From Pirellulales bacterium (lineage in GTDB: Bacteria; Planctomycetota; Planctomycetia; Pirellulales; UBA1268): a stretch of 26,184 bases of DNA. This document shows positions 10,289 to 18,117 of this stretch, piece after piece. The notes below the pieces were generated by a model, which was not told the DNA's origin, made no database searches, and saw only the letters and a list, made by a program, of their open reading frames with translations. Where the stretch lies: assembly GCA_044342095.1 (NCBI GenBank), contig JBIIQL010000001.1:1-26184 (forward strand), written 5' to 3'. Made by a program: the position numbers and the translations under genes. Each line of letters begins with the position of its first letter. Positions within the stretch are counted from its first letter, which is position 1.

Positions 10289-10302
10289 TCCGCAATTGCG
10301 GA
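10289..10302. promoter_or_regulatory. Perfect 14-bp palindrome TCCGCAATTGCGGA (candidate operator)
   Basis: Read directly from the sequence; ends 32 nt upstream of ATG 10335 in a divergent intergenic region. Confidence 0.45.
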
Positions 10303-10334
10303 ACAACGGCTCCTGCTCCCCAGGACACATAGCG

Positions 10335-12161
10335 ATGGCTACACACCCCCGTGTCAAGCGTGTTTCCGGACTCGTCTCCAAGCTGGCGACCATCCTCGCC
10401 CTGGCGACGCCGCTGGCCCCTCTCCCCGTGGCCAGTGGCGGAGACTGGATGCCGCTCCTGCCGGACCAGGACTTCTACGACTTCCAACTCTTCGCCCCGC
10501 CCGATCTCCAGGAGTACGAGATGTACCCTGAGCCGAGCGAGGGGATCTTCTTCTCCTACGACCGCCTCGCCTACGGCATCACAGTGCCGCGGGTGACCGG
10601 CGTGGGCAAGACGGATACCGGCGGGTATATCATCCCCACCCAGCCGATCTCGCCGCAGACGCTCGTTCAGCTCAACAACGGCAACATCCAGGCCGGGGCC
10701 TCGACGGGCAGCGCCAACGGCGACGTCATCGGCGGCATCTACATCTTCGGTGGTGATCCGATGCAGCTCGACCTCAACACGAGCTGGATGCGGACGAAGA
10801 TCTCGTGGGGCAACCGCTACGAGGGCGGCTGGATCTACGACAACCGCGGCGTCCTCATCTCCTATGCGAATCTCGGCTCCCAGTCGCAGAGCTTCCAGAC
10901 CAACAGCGAGTTCGCGGCGTCATCGCCGACCCAGGAGTTCACGCAGGAGACGGCCTCCGGCACAGGGACGACCGGCGGCATCGGCAACGCGATCGTGACC
11001 ACGACGATCACCTCCGAGAGCCCCCCGCCCGATCACCTCATCTCCCAGAAGCTGACCCAGAACAACAACACCGAGATCCAGAGCGGTGGCGTGGCGATGA
11101 TGCTCCGTCGCGAGTTGGGCCGGCGGGGGAGCGGCACGACGGCAACCTTCACCTTCGGTCCGCGGTACATCCAGGTGGCCGACCACTACAACATCGGTTA
11201 CGAGAGCAACCAGTACGCGTTCAACAACGGCACGACCGGTGGCGGCGGCGGCGGCGGGAACAACCAGGGCGGTGGCGGCAACAACCAGGGCGGCGGCAAC
11301 AACCAGGGTGGCGGCAACAACCAGGGTGGCGGCGTCAACAACCAAGGCGGCGGCAACAATCAGGGCGGCGGACTCGGCAACAACCCCCAGGGCAACAACT
11401 CCAACTTCATCTTCAACTCGGGACCGGCCGGGAACGTGCTCGGCATCACCGGTGTCGACACGCTGACCGGTGTCGGACAGGGTACGGCCCTCCAGACCGG
11501 CGAGTGGCAGACGAACACCTACAACAACATGGTCGGCCCGGAGTTCGGCATGCTCTTCGAGAGCAACTACGGCCGCTTCACCTTCACCAGCGGGCTCAAG
11601 TTCACCGCGGGCTTCAACTGGCAGAACAACCTTTACCAGGGTTCGAACTTCCCCGAGAGCATGGGTGCCGACTACCTCCGCGCCACGTTCTCACCCTCCA
11701 CGACGTACACCTCCGACGGCACCAACGGCACCGTCCAGACGCTCTCCGGCCCGCCGCTGTTCCTCCAGATCTACGGTGTCGGCCAGAGCAATGCGACGAA
11801 TGCGGCCAGTCACCAGTTCGTCTTCTCGCCGATCGGTGAATGGCGGTTCGGAGCCCAGTACAAGGTCAGCCAGGCGATCAACCTCCGGGCCGGCTACACG
11901 GGCATGTGGTTGGGGAGCATCGCCCGGGCCTCAACCAACACCGGCTACGTCAGCCAGCAGAGGCCGGTGCAGTATGCCCAGCCGCGGGATCCGAGCCAGC
12001 CGGCGAGTCTTCAGAATCCGTGGGTCGTGAAGACTTCGACGCCGACCGGGGCCGACGGCACGCAGGTCAGCCCGACCTACAACCGGATCGGTCCGGTGGT
12101 CGGCGGCCAGGAATACGTGTTCGTCAACGGCGTCGACTTCGGTGTCGAGGTGAAGTACTGA
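10335..12161 (+). CDS. BBP7-type outer-membrane beta-barrel protein with Gly/Asn/Gln repeat insertion
   Basis: Signal-peptide-like N-terminus, amphipathic strands (GIFFSYDRL, GNRYEGGW, NNMVGPEFG, FSPIGEWRFGAQY, INLRAGYTGMW) and a C-terminal strand VFVNGVDFGVEVKY ending in an aromatic residue. Confidence 0.75.
   Translation: MATHPRVKRVSGLVSKLATILALATPLAPLPVASGGDWMPLLPDQDFYDFQLFAPPDLQEYEMYPEPSEGIFFSYDRLAYGITVPRVTGVGKTDTGGYIIPTQPISPQTLVQLNNGNIQAGASTGSANGDVIGGIYIFGGDPMQLDLNTSWMRTKISWGNRYEGGWIYDNRGVLISYANLGSQSQSFQTNSEFAASSPTQEFTQETASGTGTTGGIGNAIVTTTITSESPPPDHLISQKLTQNNNTEIQSGGVAMMLRRELGRRGSGTTATFTFGPRYIQVADHYNIGYESNQYAFNNGTTGGGGGGGNNQGGGGNNQGGGNNQGGGNNQGGGVNNQGGGNNQGGGLGNNPQGNNSNFIFNSGPAGNVLGITGVDTLTGVGQGTALQTGEWQTNTYNNMVGPEFGMLFESNYGRFTFTSGLKFTAGFNWQNNLYQGSNFPESMGADYLRATFSPSTTYTSDGTNGTVQTLSGPPLFLQIYGVGQSNATNAASHQFVFSPIGEWRFGAQYKVSQAINLRAGYTGMWLGSIARASTNTGYVSQQRPVQYAQPRDPSQPASLQNPWVVKTSTPTGADGTQVSPTYNRIGPVVGGQEYVFVNGVDFGVEVKY
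11238..11405 (+). repeat. Intragenic tandem repeat encoding (GGG[G/V]NNQ)x6 plus degenerate copies
   Basis: GGGGGGGNNQ GGGGNNQ GGGNNQ GGGNNQ GGGVNNQ GGGNNQ GGGLGNNPQ GNNSN. The ~18-bp units carry synonymous variation (ggc/ggt/ggg, aac/aat, cag/caa). Confidence 0.95.
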
Positions 12162-12255: not shown

Positions 12256-12346
12256 CCCGTTTTCCGGGAGCCGGTTTTCAGGGATTCAGTCTTCGAGGAT
12301 CAAACGGTCGGGATTGCAGGCTTCGGCCCGTCCACGGCAGCGGCGT

Positions 12347-12841
12347 TCAGGGGCTTTCGGGGGGATCGAACCCGACGCCGATCCAACCGGCGGTCGCCCC
12401 CCGCGTCTGCGCGAGGGTCTCGAGCCGGTCGGCGAGTGGCTGCCAGAGCCGTTCGCGGGCCGCCGACGCGATGCCCGCCGGCAACTCGACCGGCACCCCG
12501 GCGGCATCGACCTGAACAAATCCCATCAGCGCGTCCATCCAGGGGAGGTCGTGCCCCGCAAGCGGCATGCCGACCACGCCGACGACGAGGTAGCACTGCC
12601 GGATCTGGAGCACCGCGCCGCGGATCTCCACGAGGGCCCCCACCGGAACACTCCGCCGGCACTCGACCGACACCACCCGGCGGAGCATGAGGTTCGCCGA
12701 CGGCCCAACCGCCCGAGTGCCGGCCGCATAGGCCGCCTCGAGCGCGAAGCGGAGAAGGCTCCCAGCGTAGAGCGTGCCGTGGTGATTGGCGTCGGCCGGG
12801 AGGACGAGGCGGTGGCTGATGGTTTCCAAAGGACCCTGCAT
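12347..12841 (-). CDS. Hotdog-fold acyl-CoA thioesterase (YciA-like)
   Basis: HRLVLPADANHHGTLYAGSLLRFALEAA, then CRRSVPVGALVEIRG and MGFVQVDAAGVPVELP. Start set at ATG 12841. Confidence 0.8.
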   Translation of the reverse strand: MQGPLETISHRLVLPADANHHGTLYAGSLLRFALEAAYAAGTRAVGPSANLMLRRVVSVECRRSVPVGALVEIRGAVLQIRQCYLVVGVVGMPLAGHDLPWMDALMGFVQVDAAGVPVELPAGIASAARERLWQPLADRLETLAQTRGATAGWIGVGFDPPESP

Positions 12842-12848
12842 GCGGGCC

Positions 12849-12857
12849 GTTATAGCA
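12849..12857 (-). promoter_or_regulatory. Extended -10 TGCTATAAC, 7 nt before ATG (leaderless-type)
   Basis: The minus strand reads ctgcTATAACggcccgcATG; no SD between. Confidence 0.55.
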
Positions 12858-12918
12858 GGGCGGGGGAGGGACGCCACCGATGCCCGCCCCCGCGGGGATC
12901 AAACAGTTCCCGCCGTGC

Positions 12919-15900
12919 TCACCACCCCGACACGGCCGCACCGCGCGGAGCGGCCTGCCGGGAGAAACCCGGATCGATCTTCGCCAGTTCCTCCCGCATC
13001 ACGGAGATCGTCCGCCGGATCTGATCGGGGGTGTGCTTGGAAGTGATGAAGAAGCGGAGGCGGGCCGCCCGCTCCTCGACCGCCGGATAGAGGATCGGCT
13101 GGACGCTGATCCCGCGGGCGAACAAGGCCCGCGACAGCTTGAGGCTGTTGATCGAGTTGCCGAGGATCACCGGAATGATGGCCGTCCCACCGGCCGACCC
13201 GGTGTCGAAACCGGCCTCCTGGGCGAGCTGGAGGAAGAGCCGGGAGTTGGCAAGGAGCTTCGTCACCCGGTCGGGCTGACGCTCGAGGAGCCGCAGCGCC
13301 CCCAGCGCCGCTCCGGCGGCCGCCGGTGGGAGGCCGACGGAGTACACGAAGCCCGGCACGGTGTACTTGAGCCAGCGGACGAGCGACTTCGAACCGGCGA
13401 TGTAGCCGCCGCAGCTGCCGAGCGCCTTCGACAGCGTGCCCATCCACAAGTCGACGTCGGCGGGGTCGACTCCGAACTGCTCGCTCATCCCCCGACCGCT
13501 GGCTCCCATGACGCCGATCGAGTGGGCCTCGTCGACCATGAGGAGCGCCTTGTGCTTCTTCGCCATCGTCACGAACCGCGGCAGGTCGGAGAAGTCCCCG
13601 TCCATGCTGTAAACCCCCTCGATGACCACGAGCACGCGACGGTACTGGCCGCGCACCTGTCGGAGGAGTTGCTCGGCGGCATCGAAGTCGTTGTGGGGGA
13701 ACGGGCGGCGACGGGCCCCGGAGAGGATCGCCCCCTGGAGAAGGCTGTTGTGCGAGAGGGCGTCGTGGAGGACGAGGTCGCCCGGGCCGACGACATGGCC
13801 GATGACCGTCTCGTTGGTGGCATGGCCGCCGACGAAGGTAATCGAGTCTTCCGTCCCGATGAACCGAGCGATCGCCTGCTCGAGTTCCTTGTGGATGACC
13901 TTCTCCCCCGACACCAGCCGGCTCGCCGACACGCTCGAGCCGTAGCGATCGAGCGCCGCCTTGGCGGCTGCCGTGACGTCGGGCTCACCCGACATCCCGA
14001 GGTAGTTGTAGGTCGCCCAGCTGATCATCTCCCGGCCGCCGATCTGCGTCCGGTCGTTGGTGAGCCCCTCGTGGACGCCAAAGTAGGGATCCTCGAGGCC
14101 GGCATCGCGGACGAGCTTGAAGTTCTGCTCGAGGGCCCGCACCTCGGGAAACTCGGCGATGTCCCACGCCTCGCGGGGAATGTCGTGGGTCACCGCGGTG
14201 ACGGCCGGGTGCTGCGGGCCGATCCCGGCGGACACGGCCGGGGCGAACCGGCCGGCGGCGGGGAGATTCGCGGCCGGCATGTGATCGAGGATCGCCTCCA
14301 CCACCTCACGACAGGTTTCGATCTGGGGGAGCACCTGTTCGGGGAAACGCCCGCCGTAGGTCTCCTCGAGACCAGTGACGATCTCCATCCGTTCGAGCGA
14401 ATCGAGCCCGAGTTCGACGATGTTACTTTCGAGGGTGAGGTTGCCAGCCCGCTCCTTGGCGATGTTGCGGACCTGGCTGAAGACGGCCTCGACGACCGAC
14501 TCGGGGAGCTCCCGCTGCGGGCGGCCGGGGCGCGTCGACTCTCCTACCGGGCGATTGCGGGCCAGTCGCGGAGCCTCCGCGCCGGGGCGGGGGGCCGCGG
14601 CGGCGGGGCGGGGCGCCTCGGTGACCGTCGAACCGGCGATCCCCGGCTGCAGCCAGCCGATCTGCTGCTCCACAACCTCCAGCGTGCCGTCGAGGAACTG
14701 CCGCTTGCAGGCGTGGCGTTGGATCTTGCCGCTCGATGTCTTCGGGACGCTGTTGGGGCGGACGAGCACGATCCCCTCCAGCGCGATCTCGTGCTCGATG
14801 GCAAGCTGGCGGCGGATCTTGTCGAACGCCTCCGTCATCTCTTCGCTATCGCGCTTGCCGCGCTCCAGTTCGGCGACGACGACGACACGTTCGCGCCCCT
14901 CGACTTCGACGGAGAACGCCGCAACGGAACCGGCCCGGATGAGCGACCCGGTCGTCTCGACCGTCTGCTCGATGTCCTGGGGGTAGTGGTTGCGACCGCG
15001 GATGATGATCAGGTCCTTGAGCCGTCCGGTGACGAACAGTTCTCCGTTGTCGAAGAACCCGAGATCACCAGTGCGGAGGTAAGGACCGGGGTTGGGCTGC
15101 CAGGTCTTGAGCGACTGCCGCTCCGATCCTGAGTCGGGCCGGGCAAGCATGGCGCCAAACGTGGCCTGCGTCTCGTCGCTGCGGTTCCAATAGCCTTGGG
15201 CCACGCTCGGCCCGCTCACCCAGATCTCGCCGATCATCCCCGGCGGCAGGGCTTCGTTCGTGTGTGGGTCGACGATCCGGACATCCTGACCGTCGAGCTC
15301 GCGGCCGCTGCCGACGAGCCGGCGCGTCCCCGGGGCGAAGCCGGTGCGGACGACCGCCGATCCGGTCTCGATCGACGTGGCGTCGAAGGTGCGGATCACC
15401 GGCGGCTCGAACTTCATCCCGCCGGTCACCATGAGCGTGCTCTCGGCGAGGCCGTAGCAGGGGAAGAACGCCTCGCGGCGAAACCCGCACGGCGCGAACG
15501 CCTCGGAGAAGGCGTCGATCGTCTCGGGGCGGACCGGCTCGGCGCCATTGAAGGCCAGCGACCAACTGGAGAGATCGAGCGAGCGACGTTGCTCTGGCGT
15601 GATCTTTCGGACGCACAGCTCGTAGGCGAAGTTCGGCCCGCCGCTGATCGTGGCCCGGTATTTCGAGATCGCCTCGAGCCAACGGAGCGGCTTTTGGAGG
15701 AACGCCACCGGCGACATGAGGACGTTGAACTTCCCGCCGTAGAGCGGCACGAGGATGCCGCCGATGAGCCCCATGTCATGGAAGCTCGGCAGCCAGAAGA
15801 CCCCCGACTGCGACCGGGTGATCTCGAAGGCCTGCATGATCCGCAGGGAGTTGTGGAGAAGGTTGGCGTGCGAGAGCATCACCCCCTTCGGCGTCCCGGT

Positions 15901-16440
15901 CGACCCGCTCGTGTACTGGAGGAATGCCAGCGTCTCGCCGTCGATGTCGGGCCGCTCCCAGCGTTCCGCCCAGTCGGACTCGAGCTCGGCATCGACCTTC
16001 CAGAGGATCTTCCCGAGGCTCGGCGCCGCGGCCCGGAGGCCGTCGAAGCGATCGAGGACATCGCGGGTCGTGAGGGCGACCGAGGCGTCGGCGTCGCGGG
16101 CGATCGCCTCGATCCGCTCGACCGAGCGATTCTTCCGTGGCGGATACGCCGGGACCGCGATCGCGCCGCCGTAGAGACAGCCGAGAAACGCGGCGATGAA
16201 GTCGAGGCCCGAGGGGAAGAGAAGGAGGACGCGTTTCCCGGTCATCCCCGAGGCCTGAAGCCACGCACCGAGCGTCCGGGCCTTCCGGTCGAGCTCGGCG
16301 TAGGTGATGTTGAGTTCGTCTTGCTCGCCGTCGACGAGGAACGTGAACGCCCGGTCATGGGGGCGGTAGGCCGACCGTTGCCGCAGCAGGTCGACAATCG
16401 TTTCGGCGAACGACGCTTCGGTGTTGGGATTGGGATTCAC
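12919..16440 (-). CDS. Trifunctional fatty acyl-AMP ligase - acyl carrier protein - PLP alpha-oxoamine synthase fusion
   Basis: FAAL: FLQYTSGSTGTPKG, WLPSFHDMGLIG, GGPNFAY, PCYGLAESTL plus insertion, YLRTGDLG, GRNHYPQDIE, PKTSSGKIQR. ACP: LGLDSL (Ser codon 14398-14400). AOS: TYNYLG, SHNS, EGVYSMDGD, DEAHS, GTLSKALG (Lys codon 13426-13428), RLRFF. GTG start with GGAGGT upstream. Confidence 0.92.
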   Translation of the reverse strand: MNPNPNTEASFAETIVDLLRQRSAYRPHDRAFTFLVDGEQDELNITYAELDRKARTLGAWLQASGMTGKRVLLLFPSGLDFIAAFLGCLYGGAIAVPAYPPRKNRSVERIEAIARDADASVALTTRDVLDRFDGLRAAAPSLGKILWKVDAELESDWAERWERPDIDGETLAFLQYTSGSTGTPKGVMLSHANLLHNSLRIMQAFEITRSQSGVFWLPSFHDMGLIGGILVPLYGGKFNVLMSPVAFLQKPLRWLEAISKYRATISGGPNFAYELCVRKITPEQRRSLDLSSWSLAFNGAEPVRPETIDAFSEAFAPCGFRREAFFPCYGLAESTLMVTGGMKFEPPVIRTFDATSIETGSAVVRTGFAPGTRRLVGSGRELDGQDVRIVDPHTNEALPPGMIGEIWVSGPSVAQGYWNRSDETQATFGAMLARPDSGSERQSLKTWQPNPGPYLRTGDLGFFDNGELFVTGRLKDLIIIRGRNHYPQDIEQTVETTGSLIRAGSVAAFSVEVEGRERVVVVAELERGKRDSEEMTEAFDKIRRQLAIEHEIALEGIVLVRPNSVPKTSSGKIQRHACKRQFLDGTLEVVEQQIGWLQPGIAGSTVTEAPRPAAAAPRPGAEAPRLARNRPVGESTRPGRPQRELPESVVEAVFSQVRNIAKERAGNLTLESNIVELGLDSLERMEIVTGLEETYGGRFPEQVLPQIETCREVVEAILDHMPAANLPAAGRFAPAVSAGIGPQHPAVTAVTHDIPREAWDIAEFPEVRALEQNFKLVRDAGLEDPYFGVHEGLTNDRTQIGGREMISWATYNYLGMSGEPDVTAAAKAALDRYGSSVSASRLVSGEKVIHKELEQAIARFIGTEDSITFVGGHATNETVIGHVVGPGDLVLHDALSHNSLLQGAILSGARRRPFPHNDFDAAEQLLRQVRGQYRRVLVVIEGVYSMDGDFSDLPRFVTMAKKHKALLMVDEAHSIGVMGASGRGMSEQFGVDPADVDLWMGTLSKALGSCGGYIAGSKSLVRWLKYTVPGFVYSVGLPPAAAGAALGALRLLERQPDRVTKLLANSRLFLQLAQEAGFDTGSAGGTAIIPVILGNSINSLKLSRALFARGISVQPILYPAVEERAARLRFFITSKHTPDQIRRTISVMREELAKIDPGFSRQAAPRGAAVSGW

Positions 16441-16612
16441 GTGCCGTGGGACCTCCGCCCACCTACCGTCCTTGAGGGACTCCCGGCGCGGCGCCTGGGG
16501 GCAGCCGGCACGGGCACCGTGCTTTTGGAAACCCGGGATTCCCCCCGGGACTTCTGGGATTTCGGCAGGTTTCCCAGACCTCCAACAGAGTCTACCCGTG
16601 GGTGCCAGACAA

Positions 16613-16643
16613 CCGGAAGTTCCGGACCACCGGGAGCTTCCGG
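16613..16643. other. GC-rich hairpin in the 389-bp region upstream of the FAAL gene
   Basis: CCGGAAGTTCCGG-ACCA-CCGGGAGCTTCCGG gives 13 pairs with one G-T and one bulge. It could terminate the ribE-rsmA-hyp transcript. Confidence 0.35.
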
Positions 16644-16829
16644 ACGGTGTTCCGCCGGCCCCGCGACCGACAGCCCTTCACCAGTCGGCAAGGGGGAGCG
16701 TCAAAGCGTCCCTGTTCCGGGGGCCACGCAAACTCTGCGGCCCCATGGCACCACCCGCCCGGGGAGTCTGGAGCCGATTCCGGCCCCGGCATCGACCGGG
16801 CGACCGCGCCGGGAGCGAGTCCCGACCGA

Positions 16830-17066
16830 TCAGGAAGCCCAAGTCCGGCCGCTCGCCGACTCGACGCGCGGTCCGAACTTGCCGGTCAATCCGCCAATGA
16901 CGTCCCACCGATCGTGCCGACGGACTTCGATGTCCCCCTGGAGGTTGACACGCACCAAACAGGTGTCGGTGAGACCGGCGCGGCGGAGGGCCTCGGGCGA
17001 CACCTCGTCCGGCTCGAGCAGGCTCATCAGCGCCCGGCCGTTCATCTCGATGTACTTCGCCAGCAT
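16830..17066 (-). CDS. Small hypothetical protein (78 aa)
   Basis: MLAKYIEMNGRALMSLLEPDEVSPEALRRAGLTDTCLVRVNLQGDIEVRRHDRWDVIGGL... SD GGGAG at about -12 and typical codon bias; globular-looking composition. Confidence 0.7.
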   Translation of the reverse strand: MLAKYIEMNGRALMSLLEPDEVSPEALRRAGLTDTCLVRVNLQGDIEVRRHDRWDVIGGLTGKFGPRVESASGRTWAS

Positions 17067-17118
17067 GCTGATTCTCCCTGAAGCGGATCGGCTCGGCTTG
17101 ATCGTCGTCGGCGCTTCC

Positions 17119-18117
17119 TCACCCGCCGAACCGGGCGTGGAACTCGCTCTCCAACCGGATGAGACCGGCGGGGGGAATCTCCTCGGCACGGGCATCCGGG
17201 GAGAGTCCGAGGGTGGTGAACAGTCCGTCGACCCCCTCGCGGACGCCCGATTCTCGCTTCCCTCCGGCGATCCGCACAAGCACGCCGCGGAGCAGTTTGC
17301 GGCGGTGGCAGAAGAGATCGCGGATGAAGCGGTGAAAACGTCCCGGGTCGGGGATCGTCGCGCGGCGCTCGGCATCGACGACGATCCGCACGATCGCGGA
17401 TTCGACCTTCGGCCGTGGCCAGAAGACGCTCGGCGGGAGGATGCGGACGATCTCCGCGTCGGCCTGGGCACCGATCCACACCGACAGCGCGTTGTAGCTG
17501 GAGTCGCCGGCATGGGCCGACATCCGCTCCGCCATCTCGCGTTGCACCGTGACGGTGGCCGACGCGAACGGGCGGGGCAGGGCGAGGAGATTGGAGATCA
17601 CGGGTGTGGCGACGCAGTAGGGCAGATTGGCGACCAGCCGCAGCGCCCCGCCGGGCGAGGCTGCAAGGGCCGCGTCGACGGCCGCGAGGAGCTCGGGGGC
17701 CATCGTGTGCTTCGAGGCCAGCGCGTCCCCCTCGACAAGCTCGACGTTGTCGACCTCGATGAGACGATCGCGTGCCAACTGCGCGAGCCGGGGATCGATC
17801 TCGGCCGTGACGACCCTTCCCGCCGCCGCCGCCAGGCGCTCGGTGAGCACACCGGTGCCACAGCCCACCTCGAGGACGACGTCGGCCGGGCCGATCCCCG
17901 CCTCACGGACGACGAGATCGACGAGATTGAGGTCGACGAGGAAGTTTTGCCCCTTCGACGCGTCGATGCCGAAGCCGACCTGCTCGAAGAGCCGCTTCAA
18001 GTAGGCCGTCGTCTGCCGGGAGGCGCGGGTTATCGGCGCGGCGGGGGGGGGCTCTGGCGGCTTCGACCAGGCAGGACGCCCTTGGGGCCTCCCCCGGGTG
18101 CCATCACGTCGGGTCAT
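17119..18117 (-). CDS. rsmA: 16S rRNA m6(2)A1518/1519 dimethyltransferase
   Basis: KGQNFL, LEVGCGTG, EID, GDAL, ANLPY, VQREMAERM, FWPRPKVES, HRRK. ATG 18117 overlaps the ribE stop (ATGA). Confidence 0.95.
   Translation of the reverse strand: MTRRDGTRGRPQGRPAWSKPPEPPPAAPITRASRQTTAYLKRLFEQVGFGIDASKGQNFLVDLNLVDLVVREAGIGPADVVLEVGCGTGVLTERLAAAAGRVVTAEIDPRLAQLARDRLIEVDNVELVEGDALASKHTMAPELLAAVDAALAASPGGALRLVANLPYCVATPVISNLLALPRPFASATVTVQREMAERMSAHAGDSSYNALSVWIGAQADAEIVRILPPSVFWPRPKVESAIVRIVVDAERRATIPDPGRFHRFIRDLFCHRRKLLRGVLVRIAGGKRESGVREGVDGLFTTLGLSPDARAEEIPPAGLIRLESEFHARFGG

Follow-up and report, generated by a model that had tools for sequence, protein, structure and literature searches.

A single-chain FAAL-ACP-AOS protein of Pirellulales, a predicted sphingoid-base synthase

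Described routes to sphingoid bases and the fused gene of a Pirellulales bacterium

Sphinganines of Pseudomonas fluorescens MYb115 are made by PfSgaAB, which consists of a polyketide synthase (PKS) of the iterative type I kind and an alpha-oxoamine synthase (AOS) (Peters et al. 2025, PMC12134224). From acyl-CoAs the purified PfSgaB enzyme produces 3-ketosphinganines, almost exclusively with L-serine in preference to alanine and glycine, and SgaC, a short-chain dehydrogenase/reductase (SDR) encoded five genes from PfSgaAB, is the proposed reductase (PMC12134224). Clusters homologous to SgaAB are found chiefly among Burkholderia (3452), Sinorhizobium (241) and Pseudomonas (225) (PMC12134224), i.e., in the genera of the WcbR/WcbT and RkpA/RkpG systems. 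A second route uses unfused proteins, namely the acyl-ACP synthetase AasR, the acyl carrier protein (ACP) AcpR and a serine palmitoyltransferase (Spt), together with “epi” (CerR) and “aca”; aca, which in E. coli B is yghO, corresponds to bCerS in the ceramide clusters of E. coli B and Caulobacter (Padilla-Gomez et al. 2022, PMC9386255). The Caulobacter crescentus/E. coli B system of Stankeviciute et al. 2022 is referred to here as cited in PMC11087976. The present analysis concerns a stretch of 26,184 nucleotides (contig JBIIQL010000001.1 of assembly GCA_044342095.1), henceforth the window, from a metagenome-assembled genome (MAG; 3.84 Mb, 640 contigs, 76% complete) of a Pirellulales bacterium. 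It contains a gene in which a FAAL (fatty-acyl-AMP ligase), an ACP and an AOS are encoded as one polypeptide. We predict that this tri-domain protein is probably a self-contained first enzyme, that is, the sphingoid-base synthase, of a pathway towards a ceramide-like lipid.

Like the PfSga system, the protein would condense a carrier-held acyl chain with an amino acid, and its AOS belongs to the same clade by way of RkpG and a Pseudomonas AOS. However, the acyl chain is built by an iterative type I PKS there, whereas here a ready-made fatty acid would be loaded by the FAAL, which is joined to the carrier and the AOS in a single polypeptide. The reductase of the PfSga system is a classical KDSR-like SDR (SgaC/RkpH), for which no clear orthologue was found here (best 35%); in its stead, the lineage of the window encodes a bCerS-type acyltransferase and a CerR-like reductase of the extended-SDR type. 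The order of activities, i.e., fatty acid activation, transfer to a dedicated carrier and decarboxylative condensation, is that of AasR/AcpR/Spt, and the partner families are also the same, comprising a YghO-like protein (37% identity to E. coli YghO over 98% of its length) and an epimerase-family reductase. Three separate proteins there nevertheless correspond to one here. The FAAL domain shares 32% identity with the AasR-type FAAL encoded beside yghO in E. coli, the AOS domain is 33% identical to its E. coli counterpart, and the AOS clade is not that of canonical Spt; the fusion is therefore a parallel solution, and not a fused copy of AasR/AcpR/Spt.

RedL of prodiginine biosynthesis, which has the architecture A-ACP-KS-AT-ACP-AOS and uses glycine to make a pyrrole precursor, likewise combines on one chain a domain that activates fatty acids, a carrier and an AOS at the end. 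It differs by its extending ketosynthase (KS)-acyltransferase (AT)-ACP module, inserted between the loading and condensing parts; neither a KS nor an AT domain is present in the tri-domain protein or elsewhere in the window. The layout itself is not new, and its components and logic are known: the identically arranged protein A3ZWL3 of Blastopirellula marina, a member of the same order, was catalogued as “A-CP-PLP2” without a product (Milano et al. 2013, PMC3870968), in a record that assigns no cluster type, substrate or product. A survey of FAALs in eLife does not mention AOS fusions.

Domain anatomy, distribution and affiliation of the condensing domain

The tri-domain open reading frame (ORF) comprises 1173 codons without internal stops, starts with GTG and is preceded by GGAGG about 12 nt 5' of the start codon. 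It is the longest among the frames with gene-like codon bias in the window (68% GC), its GC content at third codon positions (0.88) being that of real genes there. The gene and its domains are as follows, PLP denoting pyridoxal 5'-phosphate.

12919..16440, minus strand: whole FAAL-ACP-AOS gene, 1173 aa
14656..16440, minus strand: FAAL domain, aa 1 to ~595 (Pfam AMP-binding and PF23024)
14281..14475, minus strand: carrier (ACP) domain, aa 656-720 (PP-binding), with the codon of Ser681 at 14398-14400
12991..14133, minus strand: AOS domain (SgaB/RkpG/WcbT type), aa 770-1150, with the codon of the PLP-binding Lys1005 at 13426-13428

Pfam matches cover AMP-binding (PF00501, aa 22-418, 1.4e-69), the FAAL/DIP2-type C-terminal subdomain (PF23024, aa 476-591, 4.8e-12), PP-binding (PF00550, aa 657-717, 2e-07) and the class I/II aminotransferase fold (Aminotran_1_2, PF00155, aa 804-1145, 4.6e-49), and Pro/Ala-rich linkers on both sides of the carrier connect the domains. 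The adenylation motifs TSGSTG (177), YGLAE (329) and SGKIQR (570) are found in the FAAL domain. The carrier has the PP-binding fold and a DSL motif (aa 680-682) with the phosphopantetheine-accepting Ser681, and the MAG encodes two candidate phosphopantetheinyl transferases of the ACPS family. In the AOS domain, GTLSK with Lys1005, SHNS (His897), DEAHS (Asp970/His973), ASRLVSGE, FVYSVGL and RLRFFIT were located; the PLP lysine, the stacking histidine, the Asp/His pair and the C-terminal arginine typical of the alpha-oxoamine synthase superfamily are all present, and His897, Asp970, His973, Lys1005 and the arginine of RLRF align with those of E. coli B-type SPT. Translation, Pfam matches and motif positions thus agree with the preliminary description, which had recognised three intact domains with adenylation motifs, Ser681 and Lys1005.

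Among solved structures, the FAAL domain is best matched by 7r7e-g (“Polyketide synthase”, 599 bits) and Legionella FAAL 3kxw (471 bits), followed by FadD23 and FadD32, with 368 bits for the third-best score. The top eight NCBIfam matches are FAAL or nonribosomal peptide synthetase/PKS-loading families, all below their curated cut-offs. As judged from these comparisons, the domain resembles carrier-loading FAALs far more than CoA ligases. As to the insertion by which FAALs exclude CoA, the observation is limited to the alignment with 7r7e, which has no large gap across residues 340-400.

Full-length copies of the protein (72-98% identity over residues 1-1173) occur on 80 contigs of independent MAG assemblies, nearly all from lakes or reservoirs and labelled Pirellulales, Planctomycetaceae or Planctomycetia, and orthologues are also present in complete single-contig genomes of the order. 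Because the full-length fusion recurs in this way, its junctions are genuine and an assembly chimera, a possibility raised in the preliminary description, is excluded. For a wider view, 40-41 genomes were drawn evenly from the order, defined as Pirellulales by record names. The full-length gene was found in about 36 of 40 genomes from 30 families (51-80% identity), and in all 28 genomes of a second draw. It was not seen in other orders sampled from the class; sporadic occurrences were noted elsewhere in the phylum and in other phyla. The tri-domain gene is a core gene within its order, and not part of a secondary-metabolite island. Short contigs matching the gene (window region 12300-17200) were retrieved from four metatranscriptome libraries of rivers or lakes. 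Four pieces of 100% identity came from a single run, and the others were 92-96% alike and hence from relatives. These matches are compatible with expression in situ but also with DNA carry-over, and expression is not claimed.

The AOS domain scored below every curated NCBIfam equivalog cut-off:

bioF model (TIGR00858): 353 bits, cut-off 426
KBL model: 310 bits, cut-off 460
three Spt models (NF047599/NF047600/NF047603): 274, 295 and 244 bits, cut-offs 500, 640 and 670
ALAS model: 236 bits, cut-off 339
CqsA model: 154 bits, cut-off 428

The best solved structure reached 239 bits, with ThAOS, plant LCB2, KBL and bacterial SPT about equal, and CqsA in the Protein Data Bank (PDB) gave 80 bits. The residue equivalent to Arg378 of Sphingomonas SPT is not diagnostic, because, as we read the alignment, E. 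coli B-type SPT itself does not conserve it.

When annotated plasmid and chromid records were searched by tblastn, the closest AOS genes were found to follow directly on type I PKS genes in capsule-type loci. The identity is 57% to a PKS-adjacent AOS on a Pseudomonas plasmid, in a cluster ordered PKS, AOS, four genes and SDR, an arrangement shared with the PfSga genes, and 47% to RkpG of S. meliloti, whose gene adjoins those of RkpA and RkpH. In an exhaustive HMMER search over 1.84 billion cluster representatives, the best 150 matches (44-68% identity, 430-636 bits) were classified; in almost all of them the AOS is the C-terminal part of a larger protein. They include 65 PKS-AOS proteins, 11 FAAL-ACP-AOS proteins of ~1050-1250 aa, 13 FAAL-x-AOS or FAAL-PKS-AOS proteins, seven ACP-AOS and six stand-alone forms. 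A maximum likelihood tree of 83 AOS domains (IQ-TREE, LG+C20+F+G4), in which PfSgaB is not among the tips, unites the window AOS, eight orthologues from the order, RkpG, the Pseudomonas AOS and every fused form, including FAAL-PKS-AOS proteins of 2100-2600 aa, in one clade (ultrafast bootstrap/SH-aLRT 100/100, stem length 0.84), in agreement with a quick tree. A separate clade (100/98) comprises eight Spt-like proteins of planctomycetes along with E. coli B-type SPT and an AOS from Rubrobacter, and KBL and BioF lie outside both.

By sequence, the AOS domain is hence of the SgaB/RkpG/WcbT type, an affiliation that runs through RkpG and the Pseudomonas AOS, and not BioF, KBL or canonical Spt, from which both scores and clade set it apart. 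The preliminary description had pointed to a resemblance to the RkpG/WcbT type, which identities and tree bear out, and had called for an AOS phylogeny; in the tree, the domain groups with RkpG, apart from BioF, KBL and Spt. Its further proposal, that FAAL-ACP would replace the PKS, agrees with the finding that the same AOS type terminates PKS, FAAL-PKS, FAAL-ACP and ACP-only proteins; no iterative type I PKS adjoins the AOS of the window, and FAAL-ACP occupies that place.

It is highly improbable that the protein is a BioF or KBL enzyme with extra domains, or else an assembly artefact. The bioF model does give the highest single NCBIfam score for the AOS, and pipelines of the Joint Genome Institute label relatives “8-amino-7-oxononanoate synthase”. 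However, the score of 353 bits remains below the cut-off, the MAG has a separate, stand-alone BioF-like gene (contig C499, 422.8 bits), BioF and KBL form groups of their own in the tree, and an artefact is at odds with the recurrence of the fusion in 80 independent assemblies and in complete genomes. This explanation was rejected on these grounds.

The capsule-type loci bring up another function, long proposed for RkpA/RkpG/RkpH and WcbR/WcbT, namely formation of a lipid on which a surface polysaccharide is anchored or carried. The closest named homologues lie beside genes annotated “capsular polysaccharide biosynthesis” in capsule clusters, and a gene for a predicted outer-membrane protein adjoins the tri-domain gene in several lineages. 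However, the KpsC/KpsS-type family PF05159 was not found in the MAG and is represented by weak matches in four of the 41 order genomes, in contrast to the tri-domain gene, which nearly all genomes of the order possess; no glycosyltransferase or export gene is consistently adjacent. Owing to this scarcity of PF05159, the capsule anchor was dropped as the main explanation, and we regard it as rather improbable. It would be compatible with a sphingoid-base synthase, since a sphingolipid can bear a glycan.

Partner genes and the predicted pathway

The preliminary description had left the product open between a sphingoid-like base, a glycan anchor and a signal. We favour the sphingoid base because the lineage carries YghO/bCerS-type and CerR-like genes that are linked to the tri-domain gene; the glycan anchor found no support from Kps-type capsule genes. 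Linkage was first apparent on metagenome contigs with FAAL-ACP-AOS genes from lineages other than that of the window: contig L142 carries an epimerase-family reductase gene, the FAAL-ACP-AOS gene and a gene for a 354-aa GNAT-like (YghO-like) protein, and on contig L141 the FAAL-ACP-AOS gene is followed by the reductase gene with overlapping stop and start codons. Within the order, the tri-domain gene adjoins the YghO-like gene in three genomes (G337, G340 and G320) and the CerR-like reductase gene in one (G326), and reductase and YghO-like genes adjoin each other in at least seven, including both genomes of the window's own family. The YghO-like gene, for which NCBIfam has no model, is present in 32 of the 41 order genomes (36-44% identity to the GNAT-like protein, E 1e-66 to 1e-83), again including both same-family genomes, and the CerR-like reductase in 26 of the 41 (47-75% identity). 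Four high-quality genomes that lack the tri-domain gene (G330, G282, G313 and G290) also lack the YghO-like gene; this joint absence is suggestive and not statistical, related genomes not being independent.

The same partners accompany unfused enzymes elsewhere. In an E. coli record, one cluster holds yghO followed by FAAL, epimerase, ACP and AOS genes, matching that of Padilla-Gomez et al., and in Rubrobacter a YghO-family gene lies between AOS and oxidoreductase genes. Planctomycetota outside the order (L158 (G017:C37), L159 and L160) have a canonical unfused cluster that encodes an acyl-CoA/ACP-synthetase-like protein, an Spt-like protein (up to 611 bits, cut-off 640), a YghO/bCerS-like protein and then an epimerase-family reductase. 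Spt-model scores across 200 genomes drawn from the phylum are bimodal, either 460-611 bits or at most 408. Since the highest-scoring AOS found among the 41 order genomes reached 389 bits, and none fell within the 460-611 bits of canonical Spt, the tri-domain protein is the most widespread candidate for supplying the base.

In the predicted pathway, the FAAL domain would adenylate a free long-chain fatty acid, and the acyl chain would pass from the acyl-AMP to the phosphopantetheine arm on Ser681 of the protein's own carrier domain. The PLP enzyme (Lys1005) would then condense the acyl thioester with an amino acid, most likely L-serine, with release of CO2, to give a 3-keto long-chain base of the 3-ketosphinganine type. 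The products of two partner genes of the lineage that are unlinked to the tri-domain gene here, a YghO/bCerS-type N-acyltransferase and a CerR-like reductase, would subsequently act on the base, to yield a ceramide-like final lipid.

The preliminary description had noted the lack of ketoreductase and N-acyltransferase genes in the window, a point upheld by our survey of the window genes, in which no reductase or N-acyltransferase is encoded, and had suggested that partner genes be sought in the genome. The reductase was indeed found, at C138:254-1222, with 73-75% identity to the copies of same-family genomes, where reductase and YghO-like genes are divergently oriented neighbours; the ceramide-synthase-type YghO-like gene, present in 32 of the 41 order genomes, was not found in the MAG. 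As contig C138 begins 253 bp upstream of the reductase gene, where relatives carry the YghO-like gene, the latter was probably lost in an assembly gap. When the MAG was searched with the SDR RkpH, generic SDR matches of at most 35% identity were obtained.

Several observations weigh against a sphingoid-base synthase. The absence of the YghO-like gene from this 76%-complete MAG is one of them, and the immediate neighbours of the tri-domain gene in the window are housekeeping or unrelated genes. The reductase fits models of the HpnA/SdmB type best (HpnA 226 bits, below the cut-off) and is weakly similar to E. coli “epi”, so that its assignment to the CerR-type family is loose and it could serve another lipid pathway. 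ACP-AOS or PKS-AOS paralogues in some order genomes could be the true partners of the acyltransferase. In line with the preliminary description, which knew of no characterised product for this architecture in planctomycetes, no measured product of any FAAL-ACP-AOS protein was found in the literature searched, nor was a report of ceramides from cultured Pirellulales. Serine specificity is predicted from homology (≤57% identity) to relatives of one characterised enzyme, and the AOS domain lies below all three curated Spt cut-offs.

This last point, along with a position outside the canonical Spt clade, would also fit an enzyme of the same chemistry that uses alanine, glycine or some other amino acid, or whose product has another fate and feeds no ceramide pathway. 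That product would be a base of the 1-deoxy type, an amino-ketone lipid that stays free, or a signal that diffuses, such as the CAI-1 made by CqsA. In the AOS superfamily the choice of amino acid is not readable from sequence; the tri-domain gene is solitary in most genomes, and the reductase is missing from 15 and the acyltransferase from nine of the 41 order genomes. On the other hand, L-serine is strongly preferred by the sole enzyme characterised from a cluster of the homologous type, the tri-domain gene is linked to and co-occurs with those for a bCerS-type acyltransferase and a reductase, and, with respect to a signal, CqsA is the weakest AOS match both among the models and in the PDB. 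We therefore consider another amino acid or fate unlikely, albeit less so than a polysaccharide anchor, and retain the sphingoid-base synthase as the probable function.

Gene neighbourhood, further AOS genes and implications

One flank of the tri-domain gene carries ksgA/rsmA and the genes of riboflavin synthase (ribE) and enolase; on the other flank, a predicted outer-membrane protein, a xylose-isomerase-like TIM barrel protein, a pyrroloquinoline quinone (PQQ)-repeat protein, PPK2 and an M24 peptidase are encoded. The order enolase, ribE, ksgA, small ORF, tri-domain gene and outer-membrane protein gene is kept among near relatives only, and in a comparison of 12 more distant order genomes no gene was consistently next to the tri-domain gene. 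Directly downstream lies one further small gene:

12347..12877, minus strand: 176-aa hotdog-fold acyl thioesterase, 41 nt downstream of the tri-domain gene, same strand

Its product has a sub-threshold Pfam match to 4HBT (E 0.038). The AlphaFold2 model shows a hotdog fold (predicted local distance difference test 79.8, predicted template modelling score 0.75), and a Foldseek search with it against the PDB returned the acyl-CoA hydrolases 1vpm, 3sps, 2eis and 5egl (E 1e-7, probability 1.00, template modelling score 0.6-0.79), the best matches being hexameric acyl-CoA thioesterases. Asn31 and Glu47 are invariant across 25 homologues. From the modelled fold, the protein is probably an editing or unloading helper, which would clear the mis-loaded carrier domain. 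Its gene immediately follows the tri-domain gene at 52 of 80 close-relative loci but at none of the 15 order loci that are more distant, and is therefore a family-level accessory confined to the near relatives of the window.

Two other ORFs of this region lack Pfam matches. A 78-aa ORF with an ATG start (16830-17066, minus strand), situated between ksgA and the tri-domain gene, is near-identical in relatives (L007 and L009) and present at 34 of the 95 loci searched. The 621-aa predicted outer-membrane protein (10296-12161, plus strand) has weak homologues (E ~1e-15) at 51 of the 95 loci overall; in at least three further families of the order (L031, L037, L041 and L154) they are immediate neighbours of the tri-domain protein. 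This adjacency may be coincidental or may reflect a shared function, for instance in exporting the lipid or placing it in the outer membrane.

The MAG contains a second AOS of the same clade on contig C85 (L006:9139-11088, minus strand), which is 46% identical to residues 652-1153 of the tri-domain protein; it has a weak carrier-domain match and an uncharacterised N-terminal stretch, and comprises at most ~650 aa in total. Its gene is convergent with that of an MMPL-family lipid transporter (L006:6869-9205, plus strand), and a fatty-acid desaturase is encoded nearby (L006:15725-16978). Same-family genomes also carry this AOS type (frames of 541-564 aa), and a Streptomyces PKS-AOS gene likewise adjoins an MMPL gene (L019). 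One same-family genome encodes a carrier-AOS protein (G323:C60:18283-20446; 555-aa frame, 371 bits to the Spt model), with a second YghO-like gene 70 bp away on the same strand; some family members may thus possess two parallel amino-lipid modules. In seven order genomes of family f2 (G190, G211, G246, G294, G242, G286 and G238), PKS-AOS proteins of ~2565-2586 aa, with an AOS 52-55% identical to that of the window, are encoded alongside the tri-domain gene and resemble a fused RkpA-RkpG or SgaAB-like system.

The predicted enzyme would be a fused variant of the bacterial sphingolipid routes described in 2022 and 2025. Extending this prediction to the order, we tentatively entertain the less likely idea that a single protein sets the Pirellulales as a whole on the way to ceramide-like lipids, with a condensing domain that stems from the PKS-associated SgaB/RkpG lineage and not from canonical Spt; the downstream bCerS and CerR enzymes would in that case have been recruited independently. 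If the predicted function is true, an abundant order of aquatic bacteria joins the sphingolipid producers, and the single FAAL-ACP-AOS chain represents a third architecture beside free Spt with AasR/AcpR and PKS with SgaB. This would bear on how often bacteria evolved sphingolipid synthesis, on the producers of the sphingolipids in lake and sea lipidomes, and on the biology of the planctomycete envelope. The protein would, moreover, be a compact biocatalyst for converting free fatty acids and an amino acid to amino-ketones without CoA. Should the base be non-standard in its amino acid or chain, it may represent a new lipid class and possibly a biomarker for freshwater and marine Pirellulales. 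The prediction lends itself to a direct test, since the order has cultured members.

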